Positions 54,511-57,500 of a DNA stretch of 64,000 nt are shown here, piece after piece (positions within the stretch are counted from its first letter, which is position 1; the number at the start of each line of letters is the position of its first letter). This DNA comes from Escherichia coli. Its GTDB lineage: Bacteria; Pseudomonadota; Gammaproteobacteria; Enterobacterales; Enterobacteriaceae. The position numbers are program-made. The stretch lies in assembly GCF_048403405.1 (NCBI RefSeq), contig NZ_CP183129.1. One strand, written 5' to 3'.

Positions 54511-57500
54511 TGATTTTTACCGTTGCATCATGTCGCCCAATATGATGCTTGCTCGTACCAGGCCCCTGCAATTTCAACAGGGGCCTTTTTTTATCCCCGA
54601 GAAGTATAAAAAACGAACGATTTCGGTGATCAGTTGAGCGCGTGACAGTGCGCATAGCGTTGTGCTAAAAATTTTTATATATTCATATTAATTATGTAAT
54701 TTAAATTACTAAAACTGACAAATATATATTCTAAATAACAACTGGGTTATTCTTTAGCAATTAATGATTACATTGTAATAAATCATATTCTTTATCGATT
54801 ATTTCAGGCAGTGTTGTGCCGAATTATGCAAGCGGTCAATTCGTTGTATATTTAATTATACAATGATTTCGGTGTTCTGGAATTAATTAGAGGAATCTAT
54901 GCGAGGGAAAAAACGCATTGGGTTAATGTTTTTGCTGATAGCGGTTGTGGTTGGTGGCGGCGGGTTATTGCTGGCGCAAAAAGCCTTACATAAAACGTCG
55001 GATACAGCATTTTGCCTTTCCTGCCACTCGATGAGTAAACCTTTTGAGGAATATCAGGGAACTGTCCACTTTTCGAACTAGAAAGGGATACGTGCGGAAT
55101 GTGCCGATTGCCATATTCCAAAGTCAGGGATGGATTATTTATTCGCTAAATTAAAAGCATCTAAAGATATTTATCATGAATTTGTTAGCGGCAAAATAGA
55201 CAGTGACGATAAGTTCGAAGCGCATCGTCAGGAAATGGCCGAAACAGTATGGAAAGAATTAAAAGCCACTGACTCTGCAACGTGTCGTAGTTGCCATTCT
55301 TTTGATGCCATGGATATTGCCTCGCAAAGTGAATCTGCGCAGAAAATGCATAACAAAGCGCAAAAGGACGGCGAAACCTGTATCGATTGTCATAAAGGCA
55401 TTGCCCATTTTCCACCAGAAATAAAAATGGATGACAACGCGGCGCATGAGCTGGAAAGTCAGGCCGCTACCTCAGTTACCAATGGCGCACATATTTATCC
55501 TTTCAAACCTTCTCGTATAGGCGAACTGGCTACCGTGAATCCTGGTACCGATCTCACCGTCGTTGATGCCAGTGGCAAACAGCCGATCGTTCTGTTGCAG
55601 GGTTATCAAATGCAGGGCAGTGAAAACACGCTCTACCTGGCGGCAGGTCAACGGCTGGCGCTAGCCACATTAAGTGAAGAAGGTATCAAGGCGCTGACGG
55701 TAAACGGGGAATGGCAGGCTGACGAATACGGCAATCAATGGCGTCAGGCGTCTTTACAGGGTGCGCTTACCGATCCCGCATTAGCGGACCGTAAACCGCT
55801 ATGGCAATACGCTGAAAAACTTGACGATACCTATTGCGCTGGTTGCCACGCCCCTATTGCCTCCGACCATTACACCGTCAATGCATGGCCGTCCATTGCC
55901 AAAGGAATGGGGGCGCGAACCAGCATGAGCGAAAACGAACTGGACATTTTGACGCGGTACTTCCAGTACAACGCCAAAGATATTACCGAGAAACAGTGAT
56001 CCTCGTTGATCAGGGAGGAAGTTATGACATTAACAAGACGTGAATTTATTAAACACAGCGGTATTGCCGCTGGGGCGCTGGTGGTGACATCGGCTGCACC
56101 GCTACCCGCATGGGCAGAAGAGAAGGGTGGCAAAATCCTCACCGCGGGCCGTTGGGGAGCGATGAACGTAGAAGTGGAGGACGGCAAGATTGTTTCTTCG
56201 ACAGGCGCGCTGGCGAAAACCATACCGAACTCCTTACAGTCTACGGCGGCGGATCAGGTACACACCACGGTGCGTATTCAGCATCCGATGGTGAGAAAAA
56301 GCTATCTCGATAATCCACTGCAACCAGCGAAAGGTCGTGGCGAAGATATCTATGTACAGGTGAGCTGGGAGCAAGCATTAAAACTGATTCATGAGCAACA
56401 TGATCGTATTCGTAAAGCTAACGGACCATCGGCCATTTTTGCTGGATCGTACGGCTGGCGCTCTTCTGGCGTGTTGCATAAAGCGCAAACCTTACTGCAA
56501 CGTTATATGAACCTTGCGGGCGGTTATTCCGGGCATAGCGGCGATTATTCAACCGGTGCGGCACAGGTGATCATGCCGCATGTGGTGGGTTCCGTGGAGG
56601 TGTATGAACAGCAGACCTCCTGGCCGCTGATTCTGGAAAACAGCCAGGTTGTGGTGCTGTGGGGGATGAACCCGCTGAATACCTTAAAAATTGCCTGGAG
56701 CAGTACCGATGAGCAAGGGCTGGAATACTTCCATCAGCTGAAAAAATCTGGCAAACCAGTGATTGCCATTGATCCTATCCGCTCCGAAACTATCGAATTC
56801 TTTGGCGATAATGCCACCTGGATCGCGCCGAATATGGGCACCGACGTGGCGTTGATGTTAGGGATTGCGCACACCTTGATGGTACAAGGTAAGCACGATA
56901 AGGCCTTCCTGGAAAAATACACCACCGGCTACCCGCAGTTTGAAGAGTATCTGGCAGGCAAGAGCGATAATACGCCGAAGAGCGCGGCCTGGGCGGCGGA
57001 AATTTCTGGCGTACCGGAAGCGCAGATAATCAAACTCGCTGAACTGATGGCGGCGAATCGCACAATGCTGATGGCTGGCTGGGGAATTCAGCGCCAGCAA
57101 TATGGTGAACAGAAACACTGGATGCTGGTGACGCTGGCGGCGATGTTAGGGCAGATTGGTACACCGGGCGGCGGGTTTGGTTTCTCTTATCATTACTCAA
57201 ACGGTGGCAACCCGACGCGTGTTGGCGGCGTGCTGCCGGAAATGTCTGCGGCGATTGCCGGACAGGCCAGTGAGGCCGCTGATGATGGCGGAATGACGGC
57301 GATTCCTGTTGCCCGTATCGTCGATGCGCTGGAAAATCCTGGCGGCAAATATCAGCATAACGGTAAAGAACAAACGTATCCGAATATCAAAATGATCTGG
57401 TGGGCGGGTGGCGGTAACTTTACCCATCACCAGGATACTAATCGTCTGATTAAAGCATGGCAGAAACCGGAGATGATCGTCGTTTCTGAATGCTACTGGA

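Follow-up and report, generated by a model that had tools for sequence, protein, structure and literature searches.

An amber codon at codon 61 of torY is inherited within one Escherichia coli clone

In E. coli K-12, TorY is the cytochrome of the TorYZ system, according to the summary of Gon et al. 2000 given in PMC5122715; TorYZ is a minor reductase of TMAO and S-oxides. We examined a 64,000-nucleotide stretch of E. coli DNA (contig NZ_CP183129.1 of RefSeq assembly GCF_048403405.1; hereafter the window), in which the torY reading frame meets a stop codon after 60 residues and then continues as though nothing had happened. Such a locus raises the question of whether the stop is real, whether it is decoded in some fashion to give a working cytochrome, or whether torY has simply been lost. 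An earlier note on this DNA, made from the sequence alone, had put forward a single CAG-to-TAG transition and had allowed for full read-through in a suppressor background. The reading that we favor, at a probability of roughly 90%, is that torY here is a recent, clonally inherited null allele produced by one C-to-T transition, the loss of which has probably been near-neutral.

Results

An amber codon divides torY into two fragments

Translation of the plus strand from ATG 54899 yields 60 amino acids, a TAG at 55079-55081 as codon 61 of the frame, and then 305 sense codons up to the terminal TGA at 55997-55999. The sequence surrounding the amber codon reads ...CAC TTT TCG AAC TAG AAA GGG ATA CGT GCG GAA TGT GCC GAT TGC CAT.... 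If codon 61 is read as Gln, torY (54899-55999, + strand; 366 codons plus stop) encodes 366 amino acids. A mechanical listing of open reading frames likewise returns a 60-aa ORF (54899-55081) and a 289-aa ORF (55130-55999) in the same frame, in agreement with the translation and with the earlier description of an amber codon at position 61 followed by resumption of the frame into a 289-aa ORF, for a TorY of 366 codons overall. The read-through protein with Gln61 aligns to the TorC profile TIGR02162 as a single match (positions 12-385 of 387, 310.9 bits, E = 1.5e-92), of which the 60-aa piece accounts for positions 12-69 and its 289-aa counterpart for 92-385. The two ORFs are one disrupted gene, not two.

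The conceptual product is a pentahaem cytochrome of the NapC/NirT family, broken at codon 61. It contains five CxxCH motifs (at residues 39, 68, 129, 161, and 313), and its sole hydrophobic segment spans approximately residues 7-25, with the best 19-residue window starting at residue 7 and scoring 2.57. As the earlier note had it, the anchor and the first haem site (C39LSCH) precede the stop; C68ADCH lies just after it. The truncated 60-aa product (54899-55081, +) retains the membrane anchor and one of the five haem sites.

The first start-like codon past the stop is ATG 55130, encoding Met78, which opens the residual 289-aa ORF (55130-55999, +). This ORF carries haem motifs 3-5 (C129, C161, and C313) and lacks the anchor along with motifs 1 and 2. 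The sequence AGGG immediately abuts the ATG, and the site has no properly spaced Shine-Dalgarno. Hydropathy across residues 78-366 peaks at 0.64 over 19 residues, and the predicted Met78 product would have neither a membrane nor an export segment. Haem attachment to c-type cytochromes occurs on the periplasmic side, and a Met78 product without an export segment would therefore be expected to remain an inactive cytoplasmic apoprotein, beyond the periplasmic haem-attachment machinery.

The interrupted gene is torY and its ancestral codon is CAG

The gene lies immediately upstream of torZ, between cutC and cmoB, in the order cutC-torY-torZ-cmoB that is common to MS 69-1, K-12, and O157:H7; in this region the window sequence matches that of MS 69-1 exactly. 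The cutC gene beside torY is the copper-homeostasis gene, not the choline TMA-lyase. In locus, length, motifs, and anchor, the window torY matches K-12 TorY (b1873, previously YecK), which serves TorYZ as its pentahaem c-type cytochrome: the conceptual product has the five CxxCH motifs and one N-terminal anchor, and it is nearly identical to its K-12 counterpart, the genes differing at 27 nucleotides and the proteins by six substitutions plus the stop (359 of 366 residues identical). The K-12 gene, in contrast, has CAG where the window has TAG at codon 61, and a 60-residue stub is expected from the latter. The uninterrupted frame that a functional TorY needs is thus missing, and the window torY is a TorY-family pseudogene rather than a functional member of the family.

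TorC, the cytochrome of the main TMAO reductase system TorCAD, shares the NapC/NirT tetrahaem domain and the C-terminal monohaem domain with the window TorY. We rejected TorC as the identity of this gene because its product falls below both equivalog cutoffs: the 310.9 bits obtained against TIGR02162 compare with a cutoff of 478.2, and the 252.9 obtained against NF011606 with a cutoff of 455. The gene is a TorC paralog, which fits the generic name "NapC/NirT family cytochrome c" given by PGAP.

Among 5,426 complete E. coli genomes, Ecol_316 has the nearest intact torY allele, from which the window allele differs at a single position, 55079, where Ecol_316 has C. Codon 61 is CAG (Gln) in Ecol_316, K-12 MG1655, and O157:H7. 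In these three strains torY starts at the upstream Met, not at the Met encoded at 55130, and extends over 366 codons with no internal stop. Because Ecol_316 differs only at this base and the intact alleles have CAG, a C-to-T transition made Gln61 an amber codon; the mutated base is the T at 55079 and the ancestral base is C. The single transition at a Gln codon posited earlier is therefore borne out, and the comparison with other torY alleles that had been suggested as a check supports a nonsense change in a gene with the upstream start.

The amber allele is a fixed variant of one clone

A difference of one base from the nearest intact allele is what an error confined to a single assembly would look like, in which case the true base at 55079 would be C and torY would be intact. 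Six complete genomes that were sequenced independently, however, carry the same T, and torY fragments of the T allele are found on approximately 300 public contigs (NCBI, ENA, and Logan assemblies). Given this recurrence, we rejected a sequencing or assembly artefact, which we regard as extremely unlikely, and we take the T to be real, a point that the earlier note had wished to see confirmed.

The six genomes are those of MS 69-1, TUM14771, GN02461, 4621, TUM1226, and OX030728, which alone among the 5,426 complete E. coli genomes exactly match a 61-mer centered on T 55079. Thousands of other genomes, including K-12, O157:H7, and ATCC 8739, match this 61-mer with one mismatched base. Exact copies of the 60-aa product occur on 309 public contigs, one source being the MS 69-1 draft (EFJ83291.1), and exact copies of the 289-aa product on 289 (EFJ83292.1 and others). 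In the MS 69-1 draft, the shorter fragment was deposited as "hypothetical protein HMPREF9534_00645" and the longer as "NapC/NirT cytochrome c family, N-terminal domain protein".

Across torY, the window DNA is 100% identical to all six carriers, and the 9.1-kb surroundings of the gene are identical in MS 69-1 and TUM14771. MS 69-1 (NZ_CP146675.1) is collinear with window positions 1-61421 and differs by only 4 SNPs over these 61,421 bases (61.4 kb). Over a 16.4-kb span, four of the six carriers are ~100% identical to the window. TUM14771 differs over the same span by one SNP and by a further 34 SNPs clustered at 47855-49458 (flhB-flhA), and it and GN02461 both show 99.8% identity. The 1.6-kb patch in TUM14771 looks like a small homologous-recombination event within the clone; the FlhB and FlhA protein accessions of TUM14771 are the same as those of MS 69-1 despite its 34 SNPs. 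No close sister lineage with an intact torY was found among the complete genomes, the nearest being at most 99.1% identical over 16.4 kb.

The six torY-TAG genomes and the window are one clone, and the T at 55079 is inherited and fixed in this lineage, of which about 300 members have been sequenced. Recorded source countries are the USA for MS 69-1 and Japan for TUM14771. A search of fliC alleles returned no serotype labels.

Suppression, recoding, and leakiness of the amber codon

A supE-type or other amber-suppressor tRNA would allow full-length TorY to be made efficiently, with Gln or another residue at position 61. Since the TAG derives from CAG, a supE-type suppressor would restore the wild-type protein, and the base after the torY TAG is A; an A following a stop favors suppression. 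As with classical amber mutations read in supE44 laboratory strains, CAG-to-TAG is a change that supE can restore to the wild-type protein. Unlike those strains, the torY-TAG clone has wild-type glnV and glnX, as read in MS 69-1: the glnX-glnV cluster of this clone-mate, which we located by synteny, holds four wild-type tRNA-Gln genes, two with the anticodon CTG and two with TTG. The three tRNAs in the 64-kb window are Gly-GCC, Cys-GCA, and Leu-TAA, and none of them has a CUA anticodon.

We also searched complete E. coli genomes with a version of K-12 glnV whose anticodon is CTA. This exact supE-type tRNA occurs in 155 complete genomes; the 60 of these 155 matches that were listed have chromosomes of 4.50-4.83 Mb and are mostly named K-12 laboratory derivatives such as C600, DH5alpha, DH1, and J53, and these 60 include none of the six torY-TAG genomes. 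Natural isolates pay a cost for strong amber suppressors, which are known as laboratory alleles. Judged at the glnV/glnX locus of MS 69-1, a supE-type suppressor in the clone is not supported, and efficient suppression by this or another tRNA is very improbable. The read-through with Gln that the earlier note had entertained thus finds no backing, with no CUA tRNA in the window and wild-type CUG anticodons in glnV and glnX of MS 69-1. The search for a suppressor allele elsewhere that it had proposed produced none in the window or in the MS 69-1 glnX-glnV cluster, the two places covered; suppressor loci such as tyrT, serU, and leuX lie outside that scope.

Programmed recoding would mean that the UAG is deliberately decoded, by a pyrrolysine-type mechanism or by regulated read-through, in a trimethylamine-related gene. 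The association behind this idea is a loose one: the torYZ operon makes TMA, and pyrrolysine UAG codons occur in methylamine methyltransferase genes. A programmed recoding site would be conserved across lineages, whereas only 6 of 5,426 genomes have the TAG 61-mer, and CAG stands in each of the three intact alleles that were read. E. coli is not known to have pyl genes. As the stop is not conserved across related lineages, we rejected programmed recoding, the probability of which is vanishingly small.

The allele might instead be leaky, with near-cognate UAG read-through by tRNA-Gln(CUG) or a restart at Met78 sufficing to keep TorZ useful. Leakiness would account for the intact torZ and the intact downstream frame, as there are no further lesions in the 305 downstream codons or in torZ within the window, and the 289-aa fragment is found unchanged on 289 contigs compared to 309 for the 60-aa fragment. 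A recent origin predicts this intactness equally, however, given that members of the clone differ by few SNPs per 60 kb. A Met78 product would also lack the anchor, the export segment, and two haem sites, and its start has no spaced Shine-Dalgarno. Basal UAG read-through in E. coli is of the order of 0.1-1%. It would act here on an operon that PMC5122715 reports as too weakly expressed to support growth on TMAO. We consider a leaky allele unlikely.

torZ remains intact downstream of the stop

The torZ gene (56024-58453, +) encodes an intact 809-aa molybdopterin S-/N-oxide reductase. It contains no internal stops and has its own Shine-Dalgarno (GGGAGG at 56013-56018, 5 nt before the ATG), and a Tat signal is located at residues 3-31 of the protein. 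TorZ scores 1258.4 bits against TIGR00509, the profile of the bisC/TorZ subfamily (cutoff 1017.55), and PGAP annotates the gene as an intact torZ (WP_000176757.1).

In the absence of a restart, the torY stop would leave 942 nt without translation ahead of torZ. Within this part, the 78-nt stretch richest in C and poorest in G lies at ~55805-55882 and has a C/G ratio of 2.0. Between 54500 and 56100 there are three terminator-like sites versus 1.7 expected (sd 1.5), which is within one sd of the shuffle mean, and two promoter-like sites versus 3.4 expected (sd 1.5). Neither count is informative, and Rho-dependent polarity of the torY stop on torZ may occur.

The TorZ proteins of the window and Ecol_316 differ at six residues (V83A, P534A, A616G, E667D, R725K, and G794S), unlike the torY genes of the two strains, which differ only at the stop. 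The flanks are mosaic relative to torY, a pattern suggestive of past recombination around the operon.

Other lesions and mobile elements in the window

Approximately 5.4 kb downstream of torY, the end of a lambdoid prophage is inserted in yecE. It occupies window positions 61422-64000, with the junction at 61421/61422, and adjoins a truncated yecE ORF (60688-61413, -). This end of the prophage carries a tyrosine integrase gene (61440-62753, -) together with excisionase, DUF4222, and DUF551 genes. The yecE gene is intact in MS 69-1. MS 69-1, TUM14771, GN02461, 4621, TUM1226, and OX030728 share the torY allele of the window but not its yecE/prophage junction; three unrelated strains, KE40, ECO_2_R, and ECO_1_S, have that junction sequence at 100% identity. 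Because this prophage is unmatched in all six torY-TAG genomes, the window strain is a separate, further member of the clone, not represented among the 5,426 complete genomes.

The tar chemoreceptor gene (41075-42735, +) is frameshifted; its annotated length, 1661 nt, is not a multiple of 3, and the long ORF opens only at GTG 41194. At tar the MS 69-1 sequence does not differ from the window, and there PGAP labels the gene "frameshifted"; it is a second pseudogene in the clone. Near the start of the window, an integrase remnant (1893-2033, -) adjoins a broken DUF5503-domain gene with ORFs of 267 aa and 71 aa. PGAP describes the DUF5503 gene as "frameshifted; internal stop" in MS 69-1. Lying between fliE and yedL, the whole region (1893-3331) is a decayed islet.

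The clone member MS 69-1 has a type II choline-utilization (cut) cluster, which PMC4453576 uses as a marker that choline is converted to trimethylamine; the same study tested this strain, among others, for the conversion under anaerobic conditions. A lineage related to TMA has lost a TMAO reductase cytochrome here, and any functional link between the two would be conjectural.

Discussion

Our preferred account of a recent null allele begins with the C-to-T transition that turned the Gln61 codon CAG into amber TAG. Translation then halts after 60 residues and leaves a membrane-anchored stub with one of the five haem sites, and the remainder of torY stays open for the sole reason that it has gathered no further mutations. 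Any restart at Met78 would yield a protein devoid of a membrane or export segment. TorZ, still encoded intact, has been deprived of its dedicated quinol-oxidizing electron donor. Since TorY is described as the quinol-oxidizing donor for TorZ (PMC5122715), we infer that the TorYZ respiratory chain is non-functional in this clone.

The loss of torY has probably been close to neutral, as the operon's contribution in laboratory E. coli is reportedly small: a strain with torYZ alone could not respire TMAO unless the operon is overexpressed, and what torYZ does physiologically has been called unknown (PMC5122715). In uropathogenic E. coli, torZ transcription rises several-fold under HOCl, copper, and paraquat (PMC12096835), so the operon is not always silent and the loss of torY may not be strictly neutral. 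Because torZ has stayed intact, some residual use of TorZ is conceivable, either via another donor or through low-level UAG read-through.

The loss could be more than neutral decay in several ways. With torZ intact and a cut cluster in MS 69-1, TorZ might no longer be coupled to the quinol pool and might draw on another donor such as TorC, or selection in a gut lineage that produces TMA might have favored the loss. Alternatively, UAG read-through that depends on context might hold TorY at a very low, tunable level. We regard this set of ideas as quite improbable in comparison with a recent null allele of little consequence.

In the two carriers whose annotation was read, MS 69-1 and TUM14771, NCBI PGAP marks torY as a pseudogene ("internal stop"). 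No relevant publication on torY pseudogenes in E. coli turned up in a literature search. The lesion is already recorded in public annotation and represents ordinary lineage-specific gene decay. Under automatic gene calling, the gene comes out as two, a 60-aa "hypothetical protein" and a 289-aa "TorY". The torY-TAG allele provides a clean marker for the MS 69-1 lineage, with its ~300 sequenced representatives. MS 69-1 itself is naturally null for torY, which matters to those who use this widely distributed reference strain of the Human Microbiome Project to study TMA/TMAO metabolism or periplasmic S-/N-oxide reductases.
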